In this document: positions 28,046 to 57,845 of the stretch, in pieces | How positions within the stretch are numbered: position 1 is the first letter of the stretch | Layout of the letters: each line of letters starts with the position of its first letter | Source: Macrostomum lignano | Taxonomy: Eukaryota | Assembly: GCA_002269645.1 (NCBI GenBank) | Contig: NIVC01003589.1 | Coordinates: forward strand, 1-64,000 | Length of the DNA: 64,000 nucleotides | Reading direction: 5' to 3' | The notes under the pieces: generated by a model | What the model saw: the letters and a program-made list of their open reading frames with translations, nothing else | Database searches by the model: none | What the model was told of the DNA's origin: nothing | Position numbers and translations under genes: made by a program

Positions 28046-28061
28046 AATATTAAAATAAAAA

Positions 28062-32504: not shown

Positions 32505-32873
32505 ATGACGACAAACAACTTTCTTGAAGATTTGGCTAACGAACTGGAAATCCCAAACTTTAGAGGAATATTTATGAGGGACACTCTGCCTGATTTTCCT
32601 CTAAGAAAATAATGCGGCATCATGAACTTTGACACCACCGATAAGCCAGGATCTCATTGGGTTTGCTGGGTGATTGATCGCGATCGCAAGCACAAGTGTT
32701 ATTATCAATACTTCGATAGCTATGGGACGGCATTACCAGAAGAGCTAAGAAGTTTTATGAAGGGAATAAAGAATAAAAATATCTATCGCTCAGACTTTAT
32801 TCTCCAAGGTCTTAGCAGTGATATTTGCGGTGAGCTGTGCATGACTGTTTTGTATGCAATGACCAAAACATGA
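32505..32873 (+). pseudogene. Adenain-like protease with a premature TAA
   Basis: Copy of 20882-21247; GAA->TAA near 32609. Confidence 0.88.
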
Positions 32874-32916
32874 AAGACCTACAAGGAAATTATTCTTGGC
32901 TGTGTTTCATAGGGGT

Positions 32917-33585: not shown

Positions 33586-33599
33586 TTTTTTAAAGGAAA

Positions 33600-35027
<1,428 letters not shown>

Positions 35028-35040
35028 TTTTAAATAAACA

Positions 35041-35841
35041 TTAAAGTAAAATTCTTTTCTCCTTATTAATCATAACAAACTGATAGGGTTGGTTCCACTT
35101 TTCATAGCATATGTTAACAAATTCCTCCTGTGATATTGTTCTGTTAGAGTTCTTAGCTGGATATGTAATGTGAGCTGGGGCAATGACCTCATTATAAAAT
35201 CGTTTCAGTCGATCCTGTGGTATGGTTGGGAAAAGGAGAATCAAATTACAGTTACCTCTAATTGTTTTATTTGGCAGTTCAAACCAGTTTTGGGCAATCT
35301 AAATAACATTGCAGTTATTGTGTCTACCCCGGGTGAAATAATTTTCTATCTGTTTCTGGGGACCGGTCATGCAGTCATCAAAGACAATCAGGTGCTTTCT
35401 CCCCTTTTCTAGTTCATCAGGTTGAGGTAAGAGTTTAGTTTTAGGATCTATCTGTGGATCTCCATAAGTGAAAACTTTAATGTTTTGCCATTTTTCATTG
35501 TCTGGGATGTGCTTTGCGTATTCAGTAGCTAAAAATTCCGGGTTGCTGTTGAGGTCTTTTTGATGTCTAAAACATTGAATAATATCTTCCTTGTTGAGTT
35601 TGTTCTGTAGGCCCGCTACTAGCATTTTATACTCATCTTGATACAGAGTGGGTGAATAGATATGTAGTGTGTCATAATCGAGGAATCCAGGTCTGAGGAG
35701 CATGTTAAAAACTCTGAAGGTTTTCCCTGACCCAGATGAGCCAACAACAATGCATCGGATGTGCCCTGGAATTATCTCGTTGTGAGCAAATTTTATCTGA
35801 TTGCGTGTCCAGTGGGGATGAAAGTCGTTTGCGAAGTCCAT
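35041..35841 (-). pseudogene. Packaging ATPase, inner copy (TAG near 35299)
   Basis: GSSGSGKT, LIVFDD, RGRHNN. Confidence 0.9.
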
Positions 35842-36039
35842 TTTTTATGTAAAAAAAAACTTTTTCTTTTTAAACTTGTGTATTTAAGACGCGTGTGTCT
35901 TTTTTCGGGATGTGTATGTGTGTGTCTCTTTGTGGGATGTGTGTGTCTTTTTTCGGGTTGTGTGTGTCTTTTTTCTACTAGTCCTACATCCGACTAGTCC
36001 TGCACCCTCACACCTCTTTTACCGTCAGGGTGCACCAAA

Positions 36040-36420
36040 TTAGTCAAATTTAAAACCGCCTCCTTTCTTATATTCAGCTCTCATCTTTGCGTAGATGGCT
36101 GGATCGACACTATCTGCACTCGGTGCAAGGGGTTGAATATCTGGTATTGATTTCCGGGTTTCATTAACCGTATCTTTAGTCTTCTTGGCTGCTGTGGCTA
36201 CACTGCCAGCCGCTTCGGCAACGTTCTTGATGTTCTCTTTGTTCTCTCCAATGACCTTAAAAATCTTGGCCCCCTGAGCGATCAAATCGGCAAGGCCATT
36301 CCCAGAGCGTTCTTTTCTTGGATAGTGGCCTGCAGGGAAAAGTCCAGATCCGCGTTTAATGAGATTAAGTTCCTCTTTGTCATAGTATTTGTCAATGTCT
36401 TTTTCGAAAATAATTGGCAT
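36040..36420 (-). CDS. 126-aa virion-protein candidate with RGSG/SGNG/KGGG motifs
   Basis: Intact ORF from MPIIFEKD; amphipathic segment GLADLIAQGAKIFK. Confidence 0.6.
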   Translation of the reverse strand: MPIIFEKDIDKYYDKEELNLIKRGSGLFPAGHYPRKERSGNGLADLIAQGAKIFKVIGENKENIKNVAEAAGSVATAAKKTKDTVNETRKSIPDIQPLAPSADSVDPAIYAKMRAEYKKGGGFKFD

Positions 36421-36490
36421 CTTTTTAAATAGAAATTTATTTTTTGTTGAACCGCGAAAGCAGAAGCTCTCTCGCCCTCTTATCGATAAG

Positions 36491-36991
36491 AAGGACATTG
36501 ATGTTGCATACACAGCCTACATGTGTCGAGATGAGCGAAACGAAACTAGAACAAACATCTGCATTAAAGAGGGATCATGCAGCAATCCAAGGTATATTAT
36601 CATTAACATGAGAAACCCAAATAGAATTATACGCTACATGCATGGAGACGTGCGGTCCATTCAGCATGAAATCAGTGATAATCTTTACCCTGCACTGCCA
36701 CAAAATGGAGATTTCAGTCAGAACAAGATTAGCAAATTTTACAGCGAGTTGGTCGACTTGGCTGTGAAAGAGAACAATGGAATTGCTATCACTGCTCTTC
36801 AATATGGAACTCTATATCCGATGTTTGGCGCTGATGTGTCTGCCAGACAAATGCCTACTGATAACAGCCCTGTGAATATCGTGACTAACATTGAAAGGAC
36901 TGCCGCAACACCCGTGGACCTGTACATTGTCTATGCATTTGAGAGGAAGGTGAAGCTTAACATGATCAACAATTCATCCAGTAAAGTTTAA
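36491..36991 (+). pseudogene. Major capsid protein, C-terminal third only
   Basis: Near-identical to 15151-15650; fused back-to-back to the upstream region of the 36420 ORF by a ~2-kb deletion. Confidence 0.88.
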
Positions 36992-37010
36992 ATATTTTTT
37001 AGGACAAAAA

Positions 37011-37874
37011 ATGGAAGCTATAGCCGAAAGACTAAACAACATTGTTTCACACTCTAAGGAGAGCATTCCTATTACAATAACCGGGCGAATTAATGACTCA
37101 AACGGGATGTTTGTTGAAAAATTAGAGCAGGCGATTCGCCTGGATCCAGGTGCTAATTACCATGTCTATCTTAACGACTTCACTGGTTGGTCAAACGTTC
37201 CCAATGTGACGGCAGCAAATAATAAGTTTTATTACAAATGGAAAGGTGCAGCAGCAGACCCTGTGGTATTCCATGTGAGCACGCAGAGTGTTGATACCTA
37301 CAATTACTTTCTAGAAAATGTCTTTACTAAAAGAGGCCATTTTGAGACACCTGATGCGAGTAAGCCAGAGAAGAAACTGTTCCCTGTCAAACTAACCTAT
37401 GATCTCACTGTAATGAGAGTGGTCATGCAAGTTCACAAAGATGCGGAGGTTGAGTTTAAAGATGACACTTGGTATAGGGAATTACGATTCGAGAAGAAAG
37501 TTTATAAGGCAGAATCCGCGGCGCGGATCGCCACTCAAGCATCAGGGACCGTTAAAATGGTCCGGGAAAGTGTAAGCGGTTTGTTCTTAGCACCCAATAT
37601 TGAAGACATTGTAAAGGGTTTGAATATTCTAATCAGAAGCAATCTCAGTCTTGATTGGGTATTTAAGGGAAAGCGAACGAATATTTTGTACAACATCTCC
37701 AACTCTGTTGCTGGAGGACAGATTGTGGTAGAGAAACCAAATCCGGTGAAAAGAGTTGTATTGAGTAATAAGGAGATTCACGAGATTGTGCTACAGTTTG
37801 AGACTGAAGATGGGGTAGGTGTTGATTTCAACGGTGAAGATTTTGTATTGACGTTAATCATTGAGAGAATGTGA
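37011..37874 (+). CDS. Minor capsid (penton) protein, inner copy
   Basis: Intact 287 aa, homologous to 14267-15130. Confidence 0.8.
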   Translation: MEAIAERLNNIVSHSKESIPITITGRINDSNGMFVEKLEQAIRLDPGANYHVYLNDFTGWSNVPNVTAANNKFYYKWKGAAADPVVFHVSTQSVDTYNYFLENVFTKRGHFETPDASKPEKKLFPVKLTYDLTVMRVVMQVHKDAEVEFKDDTWYRELRFEKKVYKAESAARIATQASGTVKMVRESVSGLFLAPNIEDIVKGLNILIRSNLSLDWVFKGKRTNILYNISNSVAGGQIVVEKPNPVKRVVLSNKEIHEIVLQFETEDGVGVDFNGEDFVLTLIIERM

Positions 37875-37877
37875 GAA

Positions 37878-38819
37878 ATCACAATTGCTTAATGATTTCT
37901 TCAAAGTTATAGTAGCTGTCGTAATCGTTAATGACTACGGCAAGGCCATACTTATGAAACCAGTGTCTTTGGAGAGCTAGATTAATATTAGGGACATTGA
38001 TATCAACGCCGGGCCAATATTTTCTCATGTATTCACTGCATTCCTTCTTGAATTGGTACTTACTCTTGTAATTAGGCTCGTGCGCTTTGTAATAAGAACC
38101 TGGGGAGACAACTGGAAACATTTTTAGAGAAAAATTAGATTTTTTTCAATGGGTAAGGACCCTGCGCTAATAATTTTAAGTCTTAGGGATCTGATTTCGC
38201 ATTGCGAATTGAATGCGGGGAGAAGAATGCAGATTATTTTCTGATTGTTTCGAAGATGCTATGGGTGGATGTCGGTGTCAATGAGCATAACAGGTGTTAG
38301 TGGACATCTGTTATGCTCTGATTCTGTCAGGGATAATAATGGATGGATTTAATAGGATTATGTTCGAAGTTTTCGGAGCAAGTGCGACCCCCCTTTATTT
38401 CTGATTCTGTCAGGGATAATATGGATGGATTTAGGTGGATTATGGAGGATGTTTTGTGAGCGAGTGCGACCCCCCTTTTTTCTGATTCTGTCAGGGATAA
38501 TATGGATGGATTTAGGTGGATTATGGAGGACGTTTTGTGAGCGAGTGCGACCCCCTTTTTTCTGATTCTGTCAGGGATAATATGGATGGATTTAGGTGGA
38601 TTATGGAGGACGTTTTGTGAGCGAGTGCGACCCCCCTTTTTTTCTGATTCTGTCAGGGATAATATGGATGGATTTAATGGGATTATGGAGGACGTTTTGT
38701 GAGCGAGTGCGACCCCCCCCCTTTTTTTCTGATTCTGTCAGGGATAATATGGATGGATTTAATGGGATTATGGAGGACGTGAAACATTTTGTCCCAGAAG
38801 CCCCCTCATGCCTTCGACT
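37878..38819 (-). repeat. Right TIR of the inner copy (6 VNTR units; terminus catgccttcgact versus consensus catgcattctact)
   Basis: Reverse complement of the TIR consensus. Confidence 0.9.
37879..38121 (-). CDS. 80-aa TIR-encoded protein
   Basis: Variant copy of 14023-14262. Confidence 0.65.
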   Translation of the reverse strand: MFPVVSPGSYYKAHEPNYKSKYQFKKECSEYMRKYWPGVDINVPNINLALQRHWFHKYGLAVVINDYDSYYNFEEIIKQL

Positions 38820-40294
38820 GGCACTTGATGTTTTCCGGGAACGGTGGAAAGTCAGAGAAATAGTCGTAAAGCACTGGTGGAATGTAAACATCAACCTCAT
38901 AAATGGCAGCCAATGAAAAGTCCCGTTTGAATTCTGATAGCCATCGAAAATCTCTAACTGGAAGATCTTGACTCATCGCCCACCCGTAGAGATTATTAGC
39001 GTCCAAGTAAGTAATTTAGTTTGAGGGCTGCTCCTTATTGTAAGATTCAATGTAGGGATTGTTTGCTTTTGCATACCTGTTAACACAAATTAAGATCCCC
39101 CCTCGCTTTGACGATTCGACAAAATTGTACATGTCAATGTCTGTAAGAAGTTCAATGTAACAATCTGGATCTTGATCCCATTTCATTTTAAGCAAAGATT
39201 CCCAGCTAGTGGCAGGCAGAGACACATAATGTGCTGGATCGAGGCCATATGCTGTGTACCAGGTGTATCTGAAGGTTTCAAACACATCGGCCAGCAGAAA
39301 CACATCTGTGAAGAGGTAAAGCAGGTGATACTGGAAGAATTTTTGACAATTAAAGTAATTATAGACATACTTCGCGTGCTCATAGTCTTTGTCAGAGATT
39401 CCAGAGTTTGTTAGCTTTGAAAAGAACTTCTCCTGTGGTGGTAAACCTTCTTCAAATACGTGATACCCAGTAATATTTTCATAGGGGTAGAAGCCTTTCT
39501 TTCTTAAAAGTTTAAATGATTCATCAGTGTTGTTAATTTTACTTGCAAACATCTTTGTATATGTACATTGTTCATCTTTTAGATTCTTGCTTAGTTCGTC
39601 TAGACTGGCAGCTAGAAATTGATATGAATCCTTCAGTCTTATTTTACCTTTACCTAAATTATCCTGTTAAATATCAACACACTTAAACTTCTCCTTGTTC
39701 TCTGCGATGCAATCAAGGTGTATGTCTGGAATCATGCCGATTTTTTCAACTATTAAATGCATGTCATAGTTCTTTGCGTTGTGACAAAATATCGATAGAT
39801 CATGAATGTTCGATTTTAGCTTTAGATTACAGGTGTTATGCGCTGCACCTCTAAATTTCCCAGTATAGTGGCAGTGGTCCCTAACGGAGGGGTTTTTAAT
39901 ATCAGTGCAAGTTAACTGTTTCCTGCAGATGTGGCAATGAGTTGGTGATGGGAAATTGCTTTCATCCTCCTCAGTCATCATTATTGGAACAGGTTGAAGG
40001 GTGCTAATCACTCTTTGCAACTCTAACATTCTGGCAATAAACTGCTCCACACACTGCTCTCCAAAGAAATAATTATACTCAACAAGTCCTTTTGTAACGG
40101 TAATAAAAGCATATGCTACTGAATTAGGGACATGTTTTTGAGTTTCTTGCATGATTGAGCATTCGAAATCAGCATATACAACAAATTGGAGCTTCTCCAT
40201 CTTGTGATAGTTCTTAAACCGGAGATACTTTTCTTCAGCTGAAGGAAGAGAGCAGTTGGTTGGGTGATCTTCACAGGATAATTCATGCTCTGCT
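38820..40294 (-). pseudogene. polB: pPolB of the outer family A copy, middle part
   Basis: YADFEC, DHCHYTG, KGFYPYE, DANNLYG; contiguous with 22393 after removing the inner element. Confidence 0.92.
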
Positions 40295-41988
40295 TTGACT
40301 TACTTGACTTAGCTGCAGGGCTGTCCCGGGGGGACACAGCGGGAAGGCGCAAACGCCCATTCCGCTAATCCCTGAACGGCCGACGCGTCGCTATGGACGA
40401 AGGGTTGGCGCCGCCCAGGTAGTTCCCCCAGTTACGCCAGCAGCTATGGTGCTCTCTGGAAAGGAGAGTTCAGCCCTGCGGTTGGCCCGGAGGTAGCGCA
40501 TGAGCTGATTAAAGTTGTCGGGTTTGCACGCTTCAGTAATAGATGTGTGTGGCCCGAGGTAAGTGAGTCTGGCTCGCGTGAAGGCGGGACAGATGCTGAC
40601 GAAATGCTCAGCGGTTTCGTCACCTGAGTTACAGAAACTGCAGATGGCGTTGGTGGCGTTGCCCTGCAGGTACTGGTGCCTAGAGAAGCAGCCGTGACAT
40701 GAGAGGGTCATGATGGCAGCCCGGATGTCGCTGCGCGAGAGGCGCAAGAGGAGCTTCCGGAGCTGGTGAGAGGGCTGAGGGACAGCGCCTCTGGATTGCC
40801 TGCAGGTGGTGCAGTTCGCCCAAGTTGAGCGGTGCTGGGTCCTGATCCACGCTTTGATGCGCGAGTCGATGACACAGCCAGGAATCGGGACAAGGGGATC
40901 AGGACCGAGAGAGGAGCCGGAGGCACCAACTTTCGCAAGGGCGTCAGCCAACTCATTTCCTCGGATCCCCACATGCCCCGGAACCCACTTGAGGGTGATT
41001 TTGTTGGTGGAGCCCAACATGTTGAGGAGTTTGATACAGTCGAGGACTGTAGCAGAATTGGTGCTGCAGCCACTGATGGCGTGCAAGGCAGCTTGGCTGT
41101 CCGAATGGAAAATGATGTTCTTACCGGTAACGCCAGTGGCGAGGAGCTCTGCGGTGCAGGAGCTGATGGCAAGAACTTCATTTTGGAAGACACTAGAGTT
41201 GACCCCAGTGTACTGAGCGTGGGTTGCGATAACCCTTCCGTTCAGAAAGATTCCAACGCCAAAACCGGGGTTGGCTGACTGCTTAGAACAATCGGTGTAG
41301 CAGTGGAGCTCACCAGGGTTCTAGTGGTCATTGATGGTATCGCGCGAGTCGATAGCTACGGAGTGGCGCTGTCTCAGGTTGAGCGTTGAGGCAATGCCAT
41401 CAGTGAAGACCCGATTGGCATGACACTCGTTGAGAATGTTGAGGCACAGGTCGCTATGCGGGACGAGGTTCCGCTTAGCAGGTGCCCTCATGTAAAGGAA
41501 TTTGACACCGGCATCAAGTAAACCCCGGGTCGTTCTAGCCGCCTCACGCCTGACGAAGAGGTCGAGAGGCGGTAGATTAAGGAAGGCCCCCATGCCAGCA
41601 AAGGGCGTGGACCTGGTCTGCACCCTCTATTTGCCTCTGGCAGCCGCAGACTCCCCCACGCTGTCTCGCAAGTCGACCCAGGGTACTCGTCCCCGCGTGT
41701 GTTCAAGGCAGACCCTAGGGCTGCTGGACAGACTGGGCTCCGGCGCTGGCGACCCTATCCAGTGGCTTCGGCCGAATTTGGGTATGCGGGTCTGGCTCAC
41801 CAGCCTGCAGGCCGTGGTACTGCTTAACGTACCCTCTAATGCCTAAGGTGTTTGACCGTGCCGATGGGCTGGAAGGCCGGGGAGTAGTCCGGTCGCTAGC
41901 GGTCCTTTTTTCAAACCGGCTGGCTTGAGGTGTCGGCCAGTCGGGTACTCAACTCGCATAACGAGTAGCCCTCCCCCGCTTTTCAGCT

Positions 41989-43518
41989 ATGGGCACTAAC
42001 GCCACCATCTCTAAAGAAACTGACCCGGTCGCCTCTGGCTCACCGGGATCAGCCGCTCCGGTAGCTACCACTGGTAGCACCAACGCCCAACCTGGTCCAA
42101 CCGGGCCAGCTGACGCTGCCGCCGATCACCCTGGCCGCCAGTCTAGCCGACCGCGCACGGCCGAGTCTCGACGACAGCGGAACATCCGCCGCAACCGTAA
42201 GCGGCAGGAGAAGCGGGCTGCTGCTGCGTCTGAGGAGGGCGGGCAAGCCGCGGTGAGGCCTTCGGGAGCCACCGCAGCGGGGAGGCCCTCTGGGGAGTCC
42301 GGTGGCGCGGCTGGGCCGTCAGGAACCGCCGTGTCCTCGGGCTCTCAGGGGGGCAACCCTGCCGGCCTACCGCCTTCCAAAGACAAAGCGGCCCCGCTCA
42401 AGACCTCCGAGTCCTACGCGTCCAAGGTCAAGCAGCCGCTGCAACCCGCCGTGATGATCCTCGGCGGGGATTTCGACCTGACGCCCGAGCAGCTCGACGT
42501 CGCGTGGCGTACCATCGACGAGGGCTTGCTCAATCTAACCCTGGAGGGCGTCTTCGTGGACATCGTCAAGTCCACCAAGGCGAACGGGTGCATCCTACTG
42601 TGGTGCAAATCCGAGGAGAGCACCCAGCTCCTGCGGGATCAGCTGCCCAAGTTCGACTGGCACAGCGAACTGGGCCAGCTGACCTTCGCCTTGGAGAGCG
42701 AGCGGCCGAAGACCATCCGCCATCGGATTTGGGTCCCGGCCGACAGTGCAATCAAGTCCGGGGAGCAGCTGCGGCAGCTCCTGCTCAAGCGGCACCCGGA
42801 TCTCGACGCCAGTGGTCTTGTGTACCACAGCACGAACCGCAAGGGCACGACCGGGGCCACAGTCATCCTCGGCCTGACGGAGGGATGGGCCAAGCGGCTA
42901 CCGCACGGCACAAACCTCCACCTTGGTCTCCATCAACTGACCATCCTCCGCTGTGAGGAGGGCAAGGTGGAGACCAAGAAAGACGGGAAGCGCGCCGCTC
43001 CCGGAGCTGGGGCTCATGCCCCGCCGGCCAAGCGGCAGCAGCAACCCGATCCCGAGCCTAACAAGGCTATTCGCGCTGCTGAGTCCGCCTCGCGCGGACG
43101 TAGACCCGCCCGCAGTAGCCGGCGGTCCGGTCTAATCCAGCGCGCACTTGACGAAGCTCAGTCTCTGAGACTTCACCTCGAGCAGACTCGTGCCGCTCGC
43201 AAAAACACTGAAAGCCAGCCGAGGGAACTGGACGACGGCACGGCTCAGCCTTCCAACTGGTGGGATTACCACCAGGAGGACGCTGCCGGCCGAGCTCAGA
43301 CTCCCGACGGCGGGGCGCAAGGCGAAGGCAGCAGCCGTACCCCAATCGCTGGGGAGGAGGGCGGTGTAGCGCGGCTAGGTGACTCACCTGCCGTGGGCGC
43401 CGTGTCCGCCTCCGCGGCGGCTGGGGAGGCGGCTGAGCCTGAGCCAATGGAAATTGGCGACTCAACTCTCACCGATGAGGCTGAGAATGAGTTGCTTTTC
43501 TCCTCCCCTGGACAGTAG
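41989..43518 (+). CDS. LINE ORF1
   Basis: 509-aa ORF immediately 5' of ORF2. Confidence 0.85.
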   Translation: MGTNATISKETDPVASGSPGSAAPVATTGSTNAQPGPTGPADAAADHPGRQSSRPRTAESRRQRNIRRNRKRQEKRAAAASEEGGQAAVRPSGATAAGRPSGESGGAAGPSGTAVSSGSQGGNPAGLPPSKDKAAPLKTSESYASKVKQPLQPAVMILGGDFDLTPEQLDVAWRTIDEGLLNLTLEGVFVDIVKSTKANGCILLWCKSEESTQLLRDQLPKFDWHSELGQLTFALESERPKTIRHRIWVPADSAIKSGEQLRQLLLKRHPDLDASGLVYHSTNRKGTTGATVILGLTEGWAKRLPHGTNLHLGLHQLTILRCEEGKVETKKDGKRAAPGAGAHAPPAKRQQQPDPEPNKAIRAAESASRGRRPARSSRRSGLIQRALDEAQSLRLHLEQTRAARKNTESQPRELDDGTAQPSNWWDYHQEDAAGRAQTPDGGAQGEGSSRTPIAGEEGGVARLGDSPAVGAVSASAAAGEAAEPEPMEIGDSTLTDEAENELLFSSPGQ

Positions 43519-43520
43519 AC

Positions 43521-46500
43521 ATGACTGTCTCCCAGGGCATCCACTGCTTGCAGGTCAACCTGCAGCACAGCATTGCTGCTTTAGTCAACCTCTTGAAGCA
43601 CACTGACCAATACGTGCCAGGGATTATCCTTATCCAGGAACCTTGGACGCTTAGGGGCAGCCCCCAACATGTCCCCACCGGCTACCAGTGTTTAACCGCT
43701 GGTACCCGGAAGGGAAACCTGGCACCAAGATCCTGCATCATGGTGTCCAGTTCTATTAACGCATGGCTCAGATCAGACCTGTCCACCAGGGACATCTGTG
43801 TCATCCAGTCTGAAGACATACTCCCTGGGAGGACTACCCTCATCGCCTCGGTTTACCTACCGGGCGACGGCGAGATGATCCCAGTAGAGCTTGTCACACT
43901 GGTCGAGCTCTGCTCCACCAGAAACTATGAGCTGCTCGTGGCAGGTGACATCAATGCCCACCACACCCACTGGGGCAGTTCTGATATAAACCAGAGAGGT
44001 GAAGACTTCCTGGCTTATATTGCTACTACAACCCTTGAGTTCTGTAACTCGGGTAGTACCCCTACCTTCAATAACGGACGCCGATCGGAGGTGCTGGATG
44101 CCACCCTCGCCACGCCCAGGCTCTTCCGGAGCACTAGGGAGTGGCGGGTGCTTCCTGAGGCGTCCCTCTCCGATCACAAGTTCATCTCTTTCACGCTGGC
44201 CAGCGCCCGTAACGCAGGCCAGCTTTACTGGAAACGGAATGCTAGGAATACCGACTGGACCGCCTTCAGGCTTGCCCTGGAGGAGACCTATCGTTGCACT
44301 AGCACTCCAGTCTCCATCAACACCTGCGAAGAAGCAGATGAATTTGCGGCCGCACTTACGGACTCGCTCACTGCTGCCTTCGAAGCCTCATGCCCACTAA
44401 AGGCATATAAAGGCAAACAGTCGGCCCCATGGTGGAACCCGCAGCTTGGCGACCTCCGTCGCAGAGCCAAAAGGCTTCACCGCAGGGCCCAAAAAACTAA
44501 AAACCCGGCCGATCAAACCGCCTACCTGAACTCTATCCACGAGTTCAAGAGGCAGGTTAGGAACGCCAAAACCAACAAGTGGCGCGAATACTGTGAGGAA
44601 CTTGAGGGCTCCCGCCCCACCTCCAGAATCGTTAAAGCCCTCACCCTGGACAAAATGTCCAAACTCTCCTCAGTCAAGAGAGCCGACGGCTCGCTCACTG
44701 AGAACCCAGGAGAAACACTGGAAGCGATGCTAACAGCGTTTTTCCCGAACGAGCCAGCCAGGCCCGACCCCCCTGACCACTCAGTGGGCGGACACGTACT
44801 GGCTGACTCAATCATCACGGAGGACCGCGTTACTAAAGCTGTCTCCTCCTTCAAACCCTTCAAATCCCCAGGACCGGACGGCGTTGTGCCAGCCTTCCTG
44901 CGGGAGGCGGTGAAATGCACCGGTTTCCTGCGGAACTTTGTCGGCTTCTGAAAGCTTGCATTGTGCTCGGCTTTGTTCCGAAATCCTGGACCGAGGCCAA
45001 GGTGGTCTTTATCCCCAAGCCTGGCCGACCGGACTACCGGTCCATTAAATCCTTCAGACCAATTAGCCTCACCTCCACATTTGTGAAGCTGTTAGAGAGA
45101 CTGGTGCTCTGGCGCCTCCTCTCTGTGGAACTGAAGAACAAGCCGCTCAGTGAGAACCAGCATGCCTTTCAGGCAGGCAGGTCCACGGAGAGCGCGCTTC
45201 ACGTTCTGGTTGACATGCTGGAGAAAGCCGTTCTTGGTAATGGCTACGCTCTCGCTGTCTTCCTCGACATTGTTGGAGCCTTTGATAGTGTCCTCTTTGA
45301 GGCTTTTGACAGAGCTCTACGTGCTAGAGGAACCCACTCGCACCTCACCCGGTGGATCATGTATATGATCAGCCACCGTACTGCCACCGCACACCTGTTG
45401 GGCCACCAACGGACGGTAACCGTCTGCAAAGGCAGCTCCCAGGGCGGTGTCCTCTCTCCAGTTCTCTGGAACATGGTCATCGATGAGCTCCTCCAGGACA
45501 GCCATCTTGACCCCATCCTCAAGGTCGGTTACGCCGATGATGTCACTGCCGTGGCATCCGGACCGTCACCTGAAACCCTTAGAGATCTTTTGCAAAACTT
45601 CATTCGCTCTGCTGAACGTTGGGCGGACAGGTGCGGCCTCAGGCTCTCCGAGACCAAAACTGTCGCGATCATGTTCACCAGCAGGGTAAACTGGCGTATT
45701 CGCCCACTAAAGCTTTACGGGGTGGAAATTCCATCCTGCAAGCAAACCAAGTGTCTCGGCGTTACGCTGGACCACCGGCTGAGCTGGTCCACCCACGTCC
45801 AGGCCAAAACCAAAAAAGCCCTCGCGATTCTTGCGCAGCTGCGCAGAGCCGTCGGCACCACCTGGGGCCTCACCCCAAAGCGTCTCTGGTGGATCTATAC
45901 CACAATGGTCCGACCGGCCGTTACTTACGCCGGCCTGGTCTGGACCAGCGCCTTGCAGATTAAAACCTGCCACGAAGCCCTCAAAAAGGTGCAGGGACGT
46001 GCGTGCCGCATGATCCTGAATGCCCCGCTCTCTGCTCCCTTTGACGGCCTCAACGCCTTTCTCTGCCTCCCGCCTCTGGACATCTTTGTCCGTCGCGAGG
46101 CTGCTAAAACCACCCGCCGGCTCATCGAGGCTGGTGTTAGCTTCAAGCCACAAAGAGCGATGGCGAAGCGCAAGCTCCTGCCGCACTCTGACCTGTGCCT
46201 TAAAGTTCTGGAGGAGAGTGGGAGTGCGGCTGTCCTTTCGGACGCTGAACCGCGCTCCCTCAATCTCTACCAACGCTTCAAGGTCACGATCCCCTCCAGG
46301 GAGAACGCCAACGACAGCTGGGCCCCTCAGGAGGTTCACTGCTTCACTGACGGATCCTCCAAAGACGGTTTATCCGGCTTTGGAGTCTGTATCCTTATCA
46401 ACGGCCGCGTGATTGCTACTCACGCCCAACACACTGGCAGACTCTCCAGCGTCTTCCAGAATGAAGTCCTTGCCATCAGCTCCTGTGCAGCTGAGCTCCA

Positions 46501-47224
46501 CTGCAAGGACTTCAAGGACAGTAGAATCTTCTTCCACTCTGACAGCCAGGCCGCTTTACAGGCCCTGTGTCACACCACTACGAACTCCCGAACAGCCCGC
46601 GACTGTATCGGGCAGCTCAACAAGCTGGCTCGGAGGAACACCGTCCGGCTCACGTGGATCCCAGGACACGCCGGCTTCAAAGGTAACGAGCTCGCCGACT
46701 CCCTCGCTAAGGCGGGCTGTTCCGGCTCGCCCCTTGGCCCCGTGCCCCTGGCCCCCATCCCCGCCACAGTCATTAATCGTCAGATTAACGACTGGGCGGA
46801 CATCCTGCACTTGCGCAGATGGGATGGTATCTCCAACTGCCGCCAATCTCGTGCGGCAGTGCCCAATCCGTCCCTCAAGCTGCGGAGAATCCTTTTGAAC
46901 CAAAATCGAAAAGATATCCGCGCTCTCACTATGACCTTCACAGGTCACGGTTGCTTTGCCAGGCACTGCTTCCTCCGATGTGTTTGCCGGAGTGAACTCT
47001 GCCCCTTCTGCAGCCTCGAGAATGAAGATGCCAAGCACTTCGTCTGCTACTGCCCGGCCTTCAACCGAGACCGGCTCAACCACCTCGGGCCCAACCCGTC
47101 CCTGGACGACGTTTGCCGGCCCGAGAACATCCCACGGCTCATCCGGTTCCTCCGGGCCACCAAGCGAGCCTCCGTCTTCCCCACCGAAGACAACGCTGCA
47201 GACAGGACCGGCAGACCTCCCTGA
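43521..47224 (+). CDS. LINE ORF2: APE-RT-RNase H-CCHC, single frameshift near 44925
   Basis: QVNLQH, GDINAHH, SDH; RPISLTS, FLDIVGAFD, QGGVLSP, GYADD; FTDGS, QNEV, SDSQAAL, GNELAD. Confidence 0.92.
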
Positions 47225-49884
47225 CCGGCCCCGCGCCCTAGCCTATGCGGGTCTTTCAGGGATTAGCGGAATGGGCGACGCTCGCCTCCCCGCTGCGTCT
47301 TCGGACCGCCCTGCAGCTAAGTCAAGTAAGTAAGTCAAGGACCTGGTGGCGTTGCAGATGAGCCTACACGCTCTGCCTTGGATCGTGTTGAGCAGGTCTG
47401 CATGGCTTTTGACCTGGGTAGCGCTAACCCAGACAACAGAGGCGTACGTAATGGCAGGTCTAACTACGGAAGTATAGATCCACCAAAGCCGCTTTGGGGA
47501 TAGACCCCAAGAAGTGCCAAGTGCTCGTCGGAGCTGGGCCAGGATGGCTGAGGCACGCTTGGCTTTTGCTTTCACGTGGAAGGACCAGTTGAGCCGGTGG
47601 TCAAGTATGACCCCGAGACATCTGGTCTGATGCGCGAAGGCAATATCTCTCCCGTAAAGCTGCAGATGTCACATGTTCCAGCGGATTCTGCTCGTGAACA
47701 TAATGGCAACAGATTTGGGCTCGGAGAGTTCCAGACCGTTGTCATTGGCCCAGGATTCTGCTTTGCGGATAAAGCTCTGCATCAGATCCCTGAGCGTGCT
47801 GGGGGACGGCCCAGCCACAATGGCAGTGACGTCGTCAGCATACCCGACTTTGAAGACGGGATCAGGTCGGGAGTCACCCAGAAGAGCGTCCATGACCAGG
47901 TTCCAGAGCGTCGGGGTGAGGACTCCGCCTTGGGGTCCACCCTTACAGACTCTGGCGGAGGCAGTTTGCCCAAGAAGTTAGGCAGTGACTGTACGGTTGG
48001 AGATCATGTACAAGATCCACCGTATGAGGTTAGCGTGAGCTTTGCGATTTTGCAGGGCCCTCTGAAACGCTTAAAAGATAACGTTGTCGAAGGCGACAAC
48101 AATGTCGAGAAAAAGAGCCAGGGCGTAACCGTCACCCAGTACCGCCCGTTCAATCTTCTCGATTATCACATGCAGGACGCTGTCAGTCGACCTCCCGGTA
48201 CGGAAGGCGTGCTGATTATTGCTGAGAGGCATTGCTGTCAGCTCGCATGAAATCAGCCGCCAGAGAATAAGCCTCTCAGTGAGATTAAGCATGGCTGACG
48301 TTAAGCTAATTGGCCTAAAGGCCTTGATGCTCTGGTAGTCACCCTTCCCAGGTTTGGGAATGAAGACTACCCGAGCTTCGGTCCAGCACTTGGGAACGTA
48401 TCCCAGCTGGATAGAAGGCCGCATGAGATTGCGGGTAAGTCTAAGGAACGAGGGTATCTTGGCTGCTTCACGAAGGAGAACAGGGTAGATACCATCAGGT
48501 CCAGGGATTTGAAGGGCTTGAAGGTTCTGACCGCACGAGCGATTAAGTCTTCAGTGATTATGCCCGCCGCTATGGTGGCTCCATCCATTGAGTGGTTGGG
48601 TTCCGATCTAGCGGTGGGTACCCTCGGGAAGAATGTGCTGAGCATATGCTGAAGCACTTCTTCAGGGTCTTTAGTAAGAGAGCCATCATCTTTTTTGATC
48701 ATGGCTAATTTGGACATTTTGTCCATTGTAAGGGCCTTGACAAGCCTAGAAGTAGGTCTATCTTGATCCAATTCATTGCAGAATTGGCGCCATTTACATT
48801 CCTTGGCCTTGCGCACTTCAGATTTGAAGTTGCGGTAGGCTTGTCGGAAATTCTCCATGTCCTCCGGGTTTCCAGTCTTCATGGCACGGCGGTGAAGGCT
48901 TTTGGCCTTCCGACTGAGTTTCCCCAGCTCCAGGTTCCACCACGGCGCCGAGGTCTTGCCTTTGTAGGCGCGAGCAGGACAAGCCGCTTCGTGGGCTGCA
49001 ATAATGCAACCTGTCAGCGTCTCAGCCGCTTGGTCCACATCCTTGCAGGTCTCAATCGGACGTAAGTCCGTAAGTTCCTGCAGGTGCAGATCAAGGGTAG
49101 CCTTATAGGCCGCTCAATCAGTGTTGCGGATGTTACGTCTCCAAGTAATCGAGGACTGGGGTTTAGTTTCCGCGATGTTAAAGGCGATAAAGCAGTGGTT
49201 AGACAGGCACGGCTCCACAGACCAGACTCTCCGCTCCTCAACTCTGTCAAAGAGTCTTGGGGTAACGAGTGTGGCGTCAAGGACCTCAGTCCATCTGCCA
49301 TTGTTAAAGGTAGGAGTGCTACCGCGGTTGCAGAGCATGAGGTTTGTGTTAGAGATAAGGGCCAGAAGCTCCTCCCCTCTAGTATTGGTGTCTTTGCTGC
49401 CCCAGTGCTTGTGGTGCGCGTTGAGGTCGCCCCCCAAGCACAGCTCAGCGTTCTGGGACTCGCAGTACTGCGCAAGGCGTAGTAGACTCTCGGGAGCAGG
49501 GTCTCTGTCGCCAGGGATGTAAATCGAGGCAACAAGACACGTACGCGGAGAGAGATGATTAGATTGGATGACACAGAGGTCTCCATCAGAGATATCAGTC
49601 CTCAGCAAAGCCTGGAGATGGCTAGCAGCGAGGATAGCCGCTCTAGGGCGGCTGTTCCCCGGGCCACACACATAAAAGTCAGAGTAGCCAGAGGGAATGT
49701 TGAGCAACTTACCGTTGCGCATCCAATGTTCCTGGATCAGGATGAGGCCTGGCCTGTACAGCTCAGCAATCTTCATCAGATTTACTGACACAGATACGCA
49801 ATGCTGTAGATTTATTTGAGGACAGAATGTCGCTCCTTTGGCAGCGTGGAGCTTAGTCATACTGTATTAAATGCAATTGTCTGG

Positions 49885-51461
49885 CTAGAGGCCCGGGCCA
49901 TCAAGGAGACTTGGACAGCAAATCGTCCTCGTCCCAGGCCGTTGGGGCTTGACTGGGAGATGGGAGTTGGTCGACGTCCATTGCCTCCTCACCCCCACCA
50001 GCCCCCCCCCCTCAGCAGAGTCCTCAGGCTCCGATTGACAGGATGGAGGAAGCTTCCTCATCTGCATCTTTGCCTTCAGACCCCACCAGGGTGGCCGAGG
50101 AGAGCTCGGATTCCGAAGACCCGGCCTCGTCCTCAACTCCTTCTCCGGCTGGCAGGTTCGGTTCTCGGGGCTTGGCCGGAGCCGTTACCGCGGTGGCCGA
50201 ACTGCTGCTAGCAGAGGGGCGAGATGCAGCTTTGGCTTTGGGATCGGCTTGCGCCTTTCCTTGGGCCTTAGACTGCGCCCGCTCTTGCCGGAGATGCCGG
50301 GGTTGGCAGAAGCCCTCCCTTTGGCAGACTTTCCTCGGCGCATCTTGAGCTTGAGGGCACCCAGCTTGAAAGAGGATCCATCAGGGTACCGACTCGCCCA
50401 AGCGTTGGAAAGGCCGAGGACAATTGAGTTGCCCGTCTCCCCCCTGCGGACTTTGCGGTGATACACCAGTCCACTAGCAGGGAGGTCGGGTTCAGACGCA
50501 GTAGGACCCGGCGGATAACGTCAGGTCCAGCTGCGGCGCTTTTAGCAGGGACAAACACCACATAGGGTATTGTCTTTGGACGCTGGCCTTCGCGAAGAAA
50601 AAGAGCTCCGCCAAGGTCAGCATCCAAGGAGACCGTCAGAAGCCGCTGGAGCAGCTGCTGAGCATCCTCCTCACTGCTGGGAGCAATAAAAACGAATGTG
50701 CTTCGCAGCACCATCCGCTCGATGCCGATGGAGATTCCCTCCTCGACAGTCAGCTCAATCAGATAGGAGTCAACAGCACTCCACACTTTTTGAAGCTGAC
50801 TAGTGGTCCAGTCCTGGTCGCGACCTTGAATGATCACTCCCGGGATTTTGGCCTTGGCCTTCGCCGCAAAGGTAGCTCCTTGTTGGCAAGGAACCTGGTT
50901 GTTGCTGCTGGTTGTTGGTTGTTGGTTGTTGCCAAGAAACCTCCTTGTTGGCAGTGGCCATTTGTTGCGCCGTGGTTTTGGCCTCAGCAGCCGCAGCAGC
51001 ATCTCCAGGGAGCGCCGCCGCTGAACTACTGGAGCTTCCACCGGCCGGCCCGTCTGGTTGCTTTGGGACGCCAGTCGCTTCAGTATTCATGCTGGACGCC
51101 GCCGCTTTGGCCCCTGCAGCTCCCTTCTTGGCCTGCCTTTTGGCGCGTTGCTTAGCGCGTTTGCGCTCAAGCCGAGCCCGCTGAGCTTCGTCGGATCTGC
51201 CAGATTTGGCCGGTCCTTTAGGCTCAGAGCTCGCGGTTCCCTTAGATCCACCAGCAGAGCTGGCAGGTCTTTGGGTACTTTGAGTTTGGTAGCTCTGGTC
51301 GGATCTGCCAGCAGAGCCAGCCGGTCCTTCCTTTGCCACAGATGAATCAGTCGGTTGGGATCTGCCAGCATGGCCGGCCGGTCCTTCGGACTGAGGTTGG
51401 GGTTTAGAAGGGTCCCCGTCCCTAGAAATAGGGTTTTATCCATAGTCGGCTCGAAGGCCAT
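49885..51461 (-). pseudogene. ORF1 of LINE B-1, frameshifted
   Basis: ORF pieces 51087-51461, 50800-51339, 50268-51041 and 49885-50136; distant similarity to the 41989 ORF1. Confidence 0.75.
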
Positions 51462-51982
51462 GATAAAGGTTGGTGGGCTACCCTCGAAGGGGCGCGGTAC
51501 CCACCCGGCCGCTCCACCTGACCGGGCAGTAGGCCAAAAAAACCCTCAAGGCTGGCCCGACACCAGGAGGGGGACCGCTTGCGACCGGACTACTCCCCAG
51601 CCTTCCAACCCATCGGTACGGTCGAAAACCTTAGGCATTAGATTTACCCCGTTGAGCAGTACCACAGCCTGCGGATTGGCGAGCCAGACCCGCATACCCA
51701 AGTTCGGCAAAAGCCACTGGATGGGTCACCAGCGCCGGTGCCCAGTCTGTCCAGCAGCCCTAGGGTCTGCCTTGAACACACGCGGGTACGAGTACCCTAG
51801 GTCGACTTGCGAGACAGCGTGGGGGGGGTCTGCGGCTGCCAGAGGCAAATAGAGGGTGCAGACGTCCCACCAGCCTTGACCTGCTGAAAATAGGGGCAGG
51901 CGTGAAGCATCGCAGACCTTAGCGCATGGGCCTAGTCAGTCTCATACTTCAGTGGCATGCTGAATACGCCTTCGCGCGCCTC

Positions 51983-53406
51983 GTTTTTGAGTTTGAGTTT
52001 CTGGCATGATTGAGCATTCGAAATCAGCATATACAACAAATGGGAGCTTCTCTATTTTGTGATATTTCTTAAACCGGAGATACTTCTCTTCAGCTGAAGG
52101 AAGAGAGCAGTTGGTTGGGTGATCTTCACAGGATAATTCATGCTCTGCTAGTTTTTCAAAGCGCTCAGGTCCACTGTAATGTTTAGGGCACAAGCGGCAG
52201 ATGGCAACAGCCTCGTGATGATTATTCAACTGCTTGTGAATGAGTCTTGAAAGATCTTTAATCCAAACATAGTGAGCCTCCTCTAGTAAATTACCAATCA
52301 CTAGAAGATCCACTTCAGTCCGCCTTTTCCCCTCGGGATCTAAAACGTCTTTGCTACATCTGACCGGTTGAACTATCTTAGTTTTTTTCACTCCACTCAA
52401 AGACTGTGATTCTAATTTTGTTATTAAACACTTCTTCTAGCTTTGGGATCTGAGAGATCGCCAAGCCTCCTTTGTCAAACCTGATTCTCTTCTTTTCGCA
52501 TTTATTGAGATGGCAGTGTTGAAATAATTTTGATAAATTGTAGTTCTTTTGGGGTGTGTGAAGGACACTATCATGAAGAAGTGCAGAAAGAACTGCCCAT
52601 AGAGCACAGCAATTGTCTTTATTTTTAACATTTATGCAAGCTTTTTTACCGGCTAGCTTATGCGGGAGCTCTATATAAGAGGAGGCTTTAAGTGGGTCAT
52701 ATTTCATGACCATGACAGTCGCTCTTTGAATCCCTCCTACGACCCATCCGGAACCTCTGGATGTAAACGCTTCAATTTTCTTATTGACATCTTGAAGGAA
52801 AGGATCCAGTGTGTCTGTAGGGGTGAATGGCTTTGCCTTTGTTGTCATGTAATACTCGAGATGCTCAGTGGGTTTTGCAGGCATATAAAACGCAATCTTG
52901 AATGATATCTGTAGTTTAAAAGTCTTGCGTGTTTTGAGTGTGTGATCAACAACTGATTGGATGCTGTCTTTATAGTTGTAGATTTTTGCGGTGGTATCCT
53001 TAATTGGGATTGTGTACTCTATGTAATGTTCTGTAAACTTCCTCTGTGCAAAATTGATCTCTTCAGTGGCAATCTCCGACTCTTTTAATTGGATTAATTG
53101 CTCTAATTTCTCTTGTTCCTGCTTATTTTGTGGGTACTTTGCTTTTTCACCAGTGAGAGTTTCGTATTTGTTAACTAAGTTGCGACTCCTCTCTTTGTGT
53201 TTCTTTTGCAGGACTTTTTATAGGCGCATACTGGTTGAATTCTAATTGATTGATGATTTCCAACTGTTTTTCATAGCTTCCCAGGTGACCAGGGTCGGTG
53301 TTAAACTTTATTACATACTTCTCTCAGTAAATTACTTTTTTTGAAATGAGACGCCTTTTGAAAAATAATTGTTGACTAAATCTTTTGCTGGATTGGCTTT
53401 TGGCAT
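51983..53406 (-). pseudogene. polB: pPolB of the outer family A copy, N-terminal part
   Basis: Near-identical to 28659-30070; ATG at 53406. Confidence 0.92.
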
Positions 53407-53547
53407 TTTTTCTCTAAAATATAAAAAAATTTTGAGGGTGACCACCCTGATAGAAAAGTTGAACTGTTTCTACATTCTATAAGTAGTATTAGGTTTATGA
53501 AGCTGGATATAGTGGGGTTTTAAAGCTCATCACATTCACATTCACAT

Positions 53548-53960
53548 TCACATCCGCATTATTGTAAACCCAGCATTGTGCAGTGTCATAATGGATTTGA
53601 CAATGTCAGATTTGCTTACAGAATTTTCATGCTCACAATCATCACGATCATCACGATCATCAAAATCAGGGCACCCATCTCTTGCCTGAATTGTTATACG
53701 TTTGTCTCTTGCAATCTTTTGCAATTCAAGCTGGTGGGCCCTATCATTACCAGCTTTAACAGCAGTTGCTACACCTCCAGCTACACCACCTGCGGCACTT
53801 ACAGCGCCTGCAATGATTGGGATAAGAGCTGCTAATGGTAGGATTCCTCCTGACTCATCTATAGCATCACATCTGTGATGCTGTGTCTTTGCTCATTACA
53901 CTGAACTATTTGCTGCACGGGATCGATTTTTACTTTGGCACCTTTAATTGATAAAAGACC
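53548..53960 (-). pseudogene. pX-like core protein, N-terminus removed by the deletion that also removed the integrase
   Basis: Homologous to ~28123-28517; joined directly to the AT-rich PLA2 upstream region. Confidence 0.75.
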
Positions 53961-53986
53961 TTTAATATTTTATTTTAAATAAAATA

Positions 53987-54480
53987 ATGCAGCGCTCTGG
54001 TGGTAACTTAGACTCACATGGACTGATAGAAAAGCTTCCTCATCCAAACAAAGGCTGGACAATTCCCGGCTACAAATATTGCGGGCCTTTGAATCCACTT
54101 GAAATACAGTTAGATAAAAACAATAATCCAAATCCTGGGCATGAGCCTGTGAACGAGCTAGACTCTGTCTGCATGTGGCACGACGTTAAGTATAGGGATA
54201 TTTCAGAGGAGAAGAATCGCTGGGACAAAGAAATGCTTAGGAGATGATACAATATGGGAACTTCAAGCGGGTGGAGGGAATCGATCGCTCGGAAGCTAGT
54301 TAAAGCTGTTATTTTTGGTAAGATAAAGTTGGGGTTGGGGATTTGCGCCGAGGGCGGGTGAACGGGGAGAGAGGGCGGGTGCAAGGGGAGAGAGGGCGGA
54401 GGCTCGGGAGCAGGGTTTATTTTGTGCGCTTCTAACAAGGAACTGCGAAGACTTTTGAAAGATGTGGGGGTAGAGAGAGG
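53987..54480 (+). pseudogene. PLA2-domain protein, premature stop at 54245
   Basis: Copy of 26484-26975. Confidence 0.78.
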
Positions 54481-54911
54481 CGCTTGAGACGGGAAGGGTT
54501 TAACTATTATTCTCAGCCTTTGCCAAACGCGACAGCTGCATTTAAAAAGTTTAGAAGCAGATGGAGGTATGTGGTTGATCGACTGCTATTTGCTGAGGGA
54601 ACGTAGCCCTCTAGTGGATTTCGCTTTGCTATGAATTTTTTCAACACAATCTTAGGAATGGAAAAAGTGGGGTTGGGAGTCTTTGCTCGTTTTGCTGGTG
54701 TTAGGTGCTTGCAGAGAGAGGGTGGGGGGTGGCTTGATCGATCGATTGCAACAGCTAGCAACAGAAAGTTCGCGTACATGTAGATATGTACATTTGAAAA
54801 CGTTTTTAGCTCTATATCTTCACTCGCATTATGCACTGAGAAACAGAAGCAACGGATTATAGTTTTTTATGTGTAACTACTTTACGCTTCTGCTGCTCTA
54901 CCGAAACCGAA

Positions 54912-55508
54912 ATGGCTTCTAGTTCGCCTATGGATGTCGATTGGCGTATAAAGCTGTCTGGCGAAACAGCGAAACGGAGACTATGCGAGGTCTTATCTGA
55001 GACTTTAGCAGAAATCAAGGATCCAGTTAGAGCTGCGGAGAAAAGACAAAAGATCGCAGAATTTTTCGGGCTTAACGAAGAGTCGCTGCAAATGGAAGTC
55101 CTCACTCTAACGCGGCGGCAGATGAAGGAGGCGAGCGATCGCAAGGCGGCGCTTGATGCAAAGCGGCGAGATAAGCGCAAAGAAGACTTCAAACAGAAGC
55201 TCATCGCCTCACGAATTCCCCAAGCGGATGTTGGGAACCCTGCCGGTGATGAAGGCGGTGATGTGGTAGAGCGTCTGCAGTGCGCTCTGCTTCGTCTGAA
55301 AAGGTCGCAGAAGAGTGGTCTGCATCATGCGCTCCAATGTGGAAAAATCTTGTTGAAATTTAAAGCCAGTAACAAAAAATACGCTAGAAAGGCACGAAAA
55401 CAGCATTATGACTATCTTCTTGCTCGAGTTAGCCTCAAGGTTTCATCAGCAAATCTTTATATGAAGTTTTTTAAGCTGAAAAGTGGAACGCTAATATGTC
55501 AATATTAG
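54912..55508 (+). CDS. 198-aa helical protein, distant homolog of ORF 23666 (possibly C-terminally frameshifted)
   Basis: ALQCGKILL...Y..L...L....NLYMK aligns with LQLGRIFL...NFLMK. Confidence 0.6.
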   Translation: MASSSPMDVDWRIKLSGETAKRRLCEVLSETLAEIKDPVRAAEKRQKIAEFFGLNEESLQMEVLTLTRRQMKEASDRKAALDAKRRDKRKEDFKQKLIASRIPQADVGNPAGDEGGDVVERLQCALLRLKRSQKSGLHHALQCGKILLKFKASNKKYARKARKQHYDYLLARVSLKVSSANLYMKFFKLKSGTLICQY

Positions 55509-55562
55509 TTGAAATCCTTGAGGATGATCAGTCATGGAAGCAACTTGTTTGAAAAATAGACA

Positions 55563-55840
55563 CTCTAGCCTGCTTCGGATTGGTCAGAAAAAGCCAACGC
55601 GTTGGCTTTTTTTCCTTTTGCAAGAGCAAACGAAAGATTTTTTATAGAAAGCGCTAGCCTGCTTCGGTTTGGTCAGAAAAAGCCAACGCGTTGGCATTTT
55701 TCCTATTGCAGAACACAAGAGAGAAATAGTTGTAAATGGTATAGTAATAATTTTTTTGTAAAATAATTTTGTAGTATACGGACGCTCTAGCTTGTTTTCG
55801 ATTAGCCAGAAAAGGCTAACGCGTTAACATTTTTCCTATT
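55563..55840. repeat. Three ~55-bp repeats containing the 24-bp palindrome aaaaagccaacgcgttggcttttt
   Basis: Copies at ~55563 (perfect palindrome 55588-55611), ~55654 and ~55785 (degenerate). Confidence 0.88.
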
Positions 55841-56066
55841 GTGGCACCAGCTGTTTGTGACATGTTATTTCGGATATGCTATTTACTCAATTTCCTAAAT
55901 AAAATGTAACGGACGCAATCTTACAATCAGCTTTGCTGATATTTATTCAAACGAGTTTGTCCATGTGTTGATTTATTCTTGAAATGGTAATTAGCACCTG
56001 GATCCAGGCGAATCGCCTGATCTAATTTTTGAATAAGCCAAAAGACTTTATTCCGCATTATCCAAA

Positions 56067-56794
56067 GGAGGACAGATGTTGGTAGAGAAACCAAATCCGG
56101 TGAAAAGAGTTGTATTGAGTAATAAGGAGATTCACGAGATTGTGATACAATTTGAGACTGAAGATGGGGTGGGTGTTGATTTCAACGGTGAAGAGTTTGT
56201 ATTGACGTTGATCATTGAGAGAATGTAAGAAATCACAATTGCCTAATGATTTCTGCAAAGTTATAGTAGCTGTCGTAATCTTTTACGTATGTTACTCCGT
56301 ATTTAAGAAACCAGTGTCTTTGGAGAGCTAGATTAATATTAGGGACATTGATATCAACGCCGGGCCAATATTTTCTCATGTACTCACTGCATTCCTTCTT
56401 GCACTGGTACTTACTCTTGTAATTAGGCTCGTGCGCTTTGTAATAAGAACCTGGAGAGACAACTGGAAACATTTTTAGAGAAAATTTATTTTTTTCAAAG
56501 GGTAAGGACCCTAGGTTTGGGGATTTTAAGTTTTAGGGATCTGGTTTCGCCGCTTCGCATTGCGAATTGAATGTGGGGAGAAGAATGCAGATTATTTTCT
56601 GATTGTTTCGAAGATGCTATGGGTGGATGTCAGTGGATTATGTCAGTGTCAGTGAGCATAACAAGTGTCCACAGTGAGCATAACAGGTATCAGTGGACAC
56701 CTGCTCTGATTCTGTCAGGGATAATATGGATGGATTTAAAAGGATTATAGAGGACGTGAAAAACTGTCCCAGAAGCTCCCTCATGCATTCTACT
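56067..56794 (-). repeat. Right TIR of the outer copy (1 VNTR unit)
   Basis: Ends catgcattctact followed by TSD caagct. Confidence 0.92.
56233..56472 (-). CDS. 79-aa TIR-encoded protein
   Basis: Copy of 14023-14262. Confidence 0.65.
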   Translation of the reverse strand: MFPVVSPGSYYKAHEPNYKSKYQCKKECSEYMRKYWPGVDINVPNINLALQRHWFLKYGVTYVKDYDSYYNFAEIIRQL

Positions 56795-57845
56795 CAAGCT
56801 CGGCTATGTGCTTCATCATCGAGCTTTGCGCCTCTACTTGGAGTTGGGTTTGCGAGTCACGCGAGTTCGTCGGGCCATTGGATTCACAGAGAAGCCTATT
56901 CTACGCAAGTATATTAATCATAATATTGCTCGTCGTGTGGCAGCTAAAACCGAGTTCGAGAAGGACTTTTTCAAGCTGCTAAACAATGCCCTGTTTGGAA
57001 AATTCCTTCAGCGCTTTCGAGATCGCTTGACTTATTGAATGTGCTCTTCGCCAGAAAAATTGGAGACCTATATTTCGCGAGAGGAATTCTTGGATGTGAA
57101 AATTTACACTGAATTTTTGGCCAGTGTCAGTTTGTCTCCTCGGCGTGGTGCTCAACAAACCGATAATCATTGGTGCATCAATTCTGGATATTGCCAAAAC
57201 GATTGTATACAGTTTTTATTACAATCATGTACAGGTGAGCAGTAGGGGAATTTTTTGGATTTTGGGTTTGCTCTATTCTACTGCTGCTGCTGCTTTGATT
57301 TTAGGTGCACCGGTCACTTGCTTGTGCTCGCGTACTTGGCGGTGATACAGACAGTCTGATGATGGCTCTTATAATGCGGAATCCTGCTTAGACGCCTTAC
57401 GAGACACTGTTCAAAGATTTGGCTGCACAATGCCTATTGGACACTAGTAACTACCCTCCAACACACAGTCTGTACTCGCTTGCACACAAAAGGAAAATTG
57501 CTCGCATGGAAAGACGAGTTTTGCGGACGTCTTCCGTTGGAGTTGGCTTTTCTTCGGCCCAAGAACTACTCTTTTCTGCATTGCACTGCTGAGGGGACAG
57601 TTGGTCAAGTGTCTCGGTCCAAGGGAGTATGCAAGGCTGTTGCTCGGACTCTGAAGCATACTGCTTACTTGCAAGTAATAGCCGATCGACGTTTGCACTA
57701 TGTTACATTGCAAACAATTACGTCGCGCAAGCAGCTCGTGTTCTCGCTGAGTCAGCGCAAGCAAGCGTTGGGTTACTTTGACACTAAACGTGCCTGGACC
57801 AGCGATCTGGCGTCTCTACCGTTTGGTCACTGGCGACTTGACTGA
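56795..57845 (+). pseudogene. polB: pPolB of the family B element, C-terminal part
   Basis: YVLHHRAL, FKLLNNALFGK, NKPIIIGASILD, GGDTDS, KDEFCG, LRPKNYS, DTKR, LPFGHW. Confidence 0.92.
57235..57304 (+). other. Putative 70-nt spliceosomal intron in pPolB
   Basis: CAG|GTGAG ... ttttag|G; removal joins YNHVQ to VHRSLACARVLGGDTDSL in frame. Confidence 0.7.

Follow-up and report, generated by a model that had tools for sequence, protein, structure and literature searches.

The window, by which we mean the whole 64-kb stretch of DNA analysed here, is a cluster of decayed Polintons. On the forward strand it carries a family-B protein-primed DNA polymerase (pPolB) gene in two halves, both of which score above the cut-off for PF03175. 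The 5′ part is an open frame at 11457..13615 with matches to PF03175 and PF02945, and pPolB homology extends upstream of it, beyond a stop codon at 11454-11456. The other half comprises coding sequence at 56796..57234 (PF03175, E 3.8e-07) and at 57305..57845, on the same strand, with the DTDS motif 13 codons into the latter. The first of these segments is interrupted by a stop codon (57036-57038) and, near 57144-57148, by a frameshift; the second has its stop codon at 57389-57391 and its frameshift near 57485-57500. Between the two halves lies a nested insertion of 43 kb (13616..56794) with inverted ends AGTAG..CTACT, made of family-A Polinton pieces and retrotransposons and flanked by a perfect 6-bp target-site duplication (13610..13615 and 56795..56800, forward strand). 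Because the gene is split by this second Polinton and bears stops and frameshifts besides, the window copy is dead, and no polymerase is made from it whether the intron described below is spliced or not.

Several rearranged family-A copies, 78-98% alike, make up the 13616-56794 insertion together with non-LTR retrotransposons. The family-A terminal repeats at 13650-13930, 22400-22800, 38300-38820 and 63580-64000 contain tandem units of ~81-83 bp in varying number, and short direct and inverted repeats of 45-105 bp are clustered at 24370-25750. Parvovirus-type phospholipase A2-like genes are found in both Polinton families, at 58511-58924, 26484-26984 and 54000-54360, the PF08398 profile having been applied among them to 58511-58921 alone; a truncated dUTPase at 58197 lies beside one such gene. 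Candidate integrase and packaging-ATPase frames at 63221 and 59341 look plausible by eye and have no Pfam match at E 0.01. In the 5′ region of the family-B polymerase gene, a MITE-like element of 102 bp (10808-10909) has inverted arms of 31 bp that are 90% complementary.

The two coding segments of the 3′ half of the polymerase gene are separated by 70 nt at 57235..57304 (forward strand), in phase 0. An earlier, sequence-only reading of this DNA had described a T-rich GT-AG segment of that length and phase with consensus donor and acceptor, and the description holds, with 57235-57304 as the exact span. From the letters, the 5′ splice site reads CAG/GTGAGC (57232..57240) and the 3′ splice site TTTTAG/G; the latter ends a pyrimidine-rich stretch that includes a short CTG repeat (57283..57305), the length of which varies between haplotypes. 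T accounts for 0.44 of the intron and pyrimidines for a modest 0.70 of the last 20 nt 5′ of the acceptor, while the only candidate branch point is a loose and unconvincing match 10 nt from the intron end. The direct repeat AGGTG reported for both ends is present on the forward strand at 57233..57237 and 57303..57307. An inverted repeat of 8 bp (57238..57285, with arms at 57238-57245 and 57278-57285) is internal and non-terminal, its arms lying 3 and 19 nt inside the intron ends. The length is of the form 3n+1 and retention shifts the frame, as had been stated; a stop is then reached upstream of the DTDS motif.

A cut of 70 nt can slide to six positions here, and only one of the six has GT..AG ends. 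Between the flanking motifs there are 11 GT..AG pairs, five of which restore the frame, and the 57235-57304 pair alone has a consensus donor. When a strict donor/acceptor rule is applied to both strands of the 64 kb, this pair is the sole one found, against a chance expectation of 0.40 pairs, or 0.02 if the 5-bp repeat is also required; the rule was chosen with the site already known, so that these figures overstate the significance. Other origins for the segment were considered. Group I and group II self-splicing introns are longer than 70 nt can accommodate, and no Rfam match was obtained at E up to 1 within 57100-57500. The same Rfam result, together with a non-significant fold (z -1.76, with 8 of 200 shuffles equally good), led us to reject a structured RNA or mirtron. 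Tandem exon duplication as the source of the intron was likewise set aside, with a local score of 17 against a shuffle mean of 15.8 and 143 of 500 shuffles scoring as well.

Comparison with homologous proteins shows that the polymerase becomes colinear with them once the segment is removed. The exon parts then contribute 17 + 13 = 30 residues from the LDxxK motif to DTDS, and the same 30 residues separate the two motifs in all nine near homologs that span the site, which represent four independent groups. Twelve near proteins were compared; the others comprise P0005, which ends upstream of the site, P0126, which leaves the frame after it, and P0001, whose match starts at it. Among named proteins, gene models of Macrostomum lignano come nearest (P0001 at 79%, P0005 at 76%, P0006 and P0002 at 57-58%). 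These models (BOX15_Mlig017056g1, Mlig002880g1, Mlig019950g3 and Mlig012932g3), 57-79% identical to the window polymerase, belong to other subfamilies or loci and are known as proteins, in which exon structure is not visible. The protein search returned nothing more than 79% identical to either polymerase half, and a search of 50% representatives no relative nearer than the three Macrostomum models. Two loose-end strings from the sequencing runs described below can be read by eye as P0006 residues, and the host is probably a Macrostomum flatworm. Among 129 proteins, 93 have DTDS, and its spacing from the aromatic triplet is 16 in 76 of these, 17 in 12 and unplaced in five. The spacing of 17 versus 15 given in the sequence-only reading is thus numerically right; its comparator was a distant paralog, and distant pPolBs mostly have 16 whereas near relatives have 17. 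None of 157 candidate proteins scored, in what was a weak search, reads into a retained intron. In P0001 (Mlig002880g1), the N-terminal pPolB region is joined directly to the acceptor position of this intron, with most of the enzyme skipped; the join could reflect either alternative splicing over a long distance or a deletion in the genome.

The check for spliced transcripts that the sequence-only reading had proposed was made on contigs, not reads, from four of the 24 sequencing runs listed, all from one organism: X1, X5 and X7, which are DNA-like, and X11, which is RNA-like. The RNA label of X11 is a guess of the tool, no listed run being recorded as RNA, and contigs show neither strand nor level. 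In contig 9 of X11 (1,747 nt, depth 8.9) precisely 57235-57304 is missing; the skipped segment has GT..AG ends, and 255 letters or more flank the joint on either side. The joined form is present in none of the three DNA-like runs. It was thus seen in the one RNA-like run among the four, on a single contig of that run. Five letters fit both sides of the joint, so that spliced RNA and an empty DNA site would look identical. The contig is ~97% identical to the window, and the differences in its flanks are found again, with roughly half the depth, in X5 and X7; we therefore assign it to a sister haplotype.

Several observations bear on whether X11 is RNA. Its contigs total 105 million letters, compared with 233-450 million in the DNA-like runs, and they include neither the window haplotype nor a ~79% identical paralog. 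The depth at the dUTPase motif is ~15x the local level in X11 and 2-2.5 in the DNA-like runs, contig depth being a poor measure. The smaller total, the missing haplotype and paralog and the uneven depth point weakly to RNA. For X11-X14 the word share is 0.25-0.26, close to the 0.31 ± 0.03 that the sister haplotype by itself would give. Pointing the other way, contig 9 continues for ~470 nt beyond the polymerase stop and enters the following gene, and the start of a second X11 contig seems to lie no more than 2 letters from that of the corresponding DNA contig, as could be the case for DNA. At 57499-57577, the DNA-like runs contain at least two further diverged family-B-like polymerase paralogs, one of which is also found in X11. 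Its contig there terminates close to the stop codon of the polymerase, while the X1 contig continues for 1.6 kb.

A second variant of the intron, 3 nt longer, is present in X1, X5 and X7. Its share, estimated from depth bins, is 0.46 in X7 (sister haplotype 0.45-0.53), 0.37 in X5 (0.47-0.62) and 0.34 in X1, and its link to the sister haplotype is one of depth arithmetic, which X5 and X1 fit less well than X7, with 46 variant rows falling outside those listed. In X1, the longer intron and six substitutions just 3′ of it lie on one contig; these fit, without proving, the six of the 33 3′-side differences of X11 that fall outside those listed. The depths in the DNA-like runs suggest that both ~97% haplotypes retain the intron in DNA. 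A separate feature of the sister haplotype comes from X7, where a contig common to both haplotypes (record 24) has its end precisely at 56795, where the target duplication starts, which suggests that the sister lacks the family-A insertion. Taken together, 57235-57304 is likely to be a real intron that is probably spliced in the sister haplotype.

Other copies of the gene indicate when the intron may have arisen. In X1 and X5, the ~79% paralog aligns at 57155-57234 and then again from 57390; in X1 the aligned parts are 85 letters apart, compared with 155 in the window, a difference of exactly 70 if two table rows are taken as one record. This paralog appears to lack the intron in DNA. Among distant loci from viral and metagenome contigs, 83 of 84 are contiguous at the site; the 84 comprise all four viral matches and the best 80 of 519 metagenome matches, all of them distant and biased towards intact frames. 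The contigs of the nearest JGI proteins were not returned by the locus scans. In a quick tree of 16 rows built on the unbroken 5′ frame, the window groups with P0005 (support 100), P0006 and P0002/P0127 stand beside them with unresolved branching, and two JGI proteins, each a single called frame, fall outside. The apparently intron-free P0006-type and JGI proteins are both off the window's branch. Since the ~79% paralog and 83 of the 84 distant loci appear to be without the intron, a single gain on the window's branch, in one subfamily, is the simplest history. The comparison with other copies thus yielded one close paralog that appears intron-free, and the intron itself in the two ~97% haplotypes alone. 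Of the possible recent gain suggested earlier, the gain is probable and the recency was not borne out: the event is older than the ~3% split of the two haplotypes, and the nearest bound on its other side is the ~79% paralog.

In the view that we favor and consider likely, the segment is a spliceosomal intron of the U2 type, short and otherwise ordinary, gained once in one pPolB subfamily of a Macrostomum-like flatworm. This view has to be weighed against an insertion of 70 nt with a 5-bp duplication that is never spliced, X11 then being, or containing, DNA of a strain with an empty site or with a precise microhomology deletion. Such an insertion would leave the same joined form, the RNA label is guessed, the X11 contig crosses an intergenic stretch and the window copy bears other lesions. 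Against it, X7 seems to contain the segment in each of the ~97% haplotypes, so that the sister allele could be empty only through a precise loss; consensus sites at both ends would be rare in a random insertion; and the size of X11, its missing haplotype and paralog and its dUTPase depth hint, weakly, at RNA. On balance we regard an unspliced insertion as unlikely.

Two further alternatives accept the intron and differ as to its source. It might be an introner, a small mobile element that duplicates its target on insertion and carries splice sites with it or generates them, as the 5-bp repeat at both ends and the inverted repeat of 8 bp inside could indicate, and introners are documented in dinoflagellate polinton-like elements in the accessible text of PMC11957031. 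The inverted repeat is, however, non-terminal and the fold weak, the window contains one copy at up to 3 mismatches, and the three DNA-like runs have no excess depth at the intron. We regard an introner as very unlikely. An old intron of the polymerase clade, lost in the other subfamilies, would be compatible with a tree in which three Macrostomum-type subfamilies branch without resolution and the intron state is visible in few. The seemingly intron-free paralog, the single called frames of the two JGI outgroup proteins, the other residues that homologs have at the join and the contiguity of 83 of 84 distant loci count against such an origin, which we hold to be highly improbable.

For the preferred spliceosomal intron, the following course of events can be proposed. 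The skipping contig would be mRNA of the sister haplotype, whose DNA would keep the intron. The integrated element would be transcribed in the nucleus by host RNA polymerase II, and the host spliceosome would remove the intron, translation otherwise stopping before the catalytic DTDS. More tentatively, the intron may have arisen as a short filler insertion at a Gln-Val (AG/GT) junction, most likely when a staggered break was repaired with duplication of 5 bp, which would have supplied the two splice sites in one step, and it may have been tolerated because it splices. Valine after the join, which supplies the GT, is found in the window and P0001 alone, with other residues in the five other homologs compared, and this fits an insertion at AG/GT with a 5-bp duplication. 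An origin at a duplicated proto-splice site, as the sequence-only reading had it, is nevertheless poorly backed by the repeat itself: four of the five bases of AGGTG are ordinary splice-site consensus, so that the repeat is weak evidence for duplication. The three DNA-like runs contain no intron-free copy with the same junction and one repeat, and the paralog type differs at the join residue.

The gain may have followed integration, in a resident copy, with the window copy subsequently split by the second Polinton and then decaying. A single locus could account for the two ~97% haplotypes, as alleles or homeologs, and for this reason it is equally plausible that the intron was gained after integration and that it belongs to a mobile family that carries it. 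Dependence of the element on the nuclear spliceosome, which had been deduced from the sequence, does not follow here: the copy at hand is a split pseudogene rather than a working element, and the two haplotypes in which the intron is seen may be one locus. A bolder reading, in which all copies of a transposing Macrostomum Polinton lineage carry the intron, the polymerase is made through host splicing only and the choice made at this acceptor (normal splicing, retention, or a long in-frame skip that begins in the N-terminal region, as in P0001) controls where and when replication takes place, seems to us quite unlikely.

Comparison with known elements places the intron as follows. The genes of intact vertebrate Mavericks are intronless according to the available portion of PMC8097293, and in a nematode Maverick the core genes are intronless and introns occur in cargo genes, as far as the accessible text of 10.1101/2022.07.12.499685 goes. 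Our elements resemble these Polintons/Mavericks in having a protein-primed PolB (PF03175) and, for the family-A insert, inverted ends with a 6-bp duplication, but differ in that the intron lies in a core polymerase. The dinoflagellate maverick-polinton-like elements carry multi-copy introners, mostly gained after integration in the account available from PMC11957031. They share with our case intron-like insertions within integrated polinton-like elements; there the insertions are multi-copy, whereas the data examined here contain no second copy and the host is probably an animal. Giant endogenous viral elements have, in the part of PMC12455990 that is accessible, host-type introns gained after integration, some of them spliced, and are thus alike in bearing such introns in viral genes, but they derive from algal or protist giant viruses and not from Polintons. 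In Daphnia pulex, 33 newly gained introns share a repeat of 4-12 bp with the next exon, judging from the available text of PMC4202315. The two cases have in common a new intron of small size bounded by a short direct repeat (5 bp here), and the difference is that an empty allele was observed in populations there, while no intron-free DNA copy with the same junction was seen here. PMC12220804, PMC8502044, 10.1101/2023.08.22.554363, PMC11296320 and PMC11161782 describe, in their accessible portions, self-splicing introns or none. The one paper to name both Macrostomum and Polinton is, by its listing, about Tc1/mariner. In the literature covered, which mostly excludes subscription papers, no animal Polinton polymerase is reported to contain a spliced intron, although supplements or repeat-library entries may record Polinton introns.

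The case is one of a bracketed intron gain with a terminal repeat, and its significance would be smaller if the intron were confined to a single decaying locus. Bellas et al. (PMC10120064), in the text available, assumed endogenous viruses to be intron-free and used prokaryote-style gene predictors; because the predictors of such surveys assume no introns, a Polinton copy that bears one can be wrongly filed as a frameshifted fossil. If the polymerase gene of an animal Polinton contains a spliced intron, as is likely here, this would indicate that the element is transcribed in the nucleus and its transcripts processed by the host.
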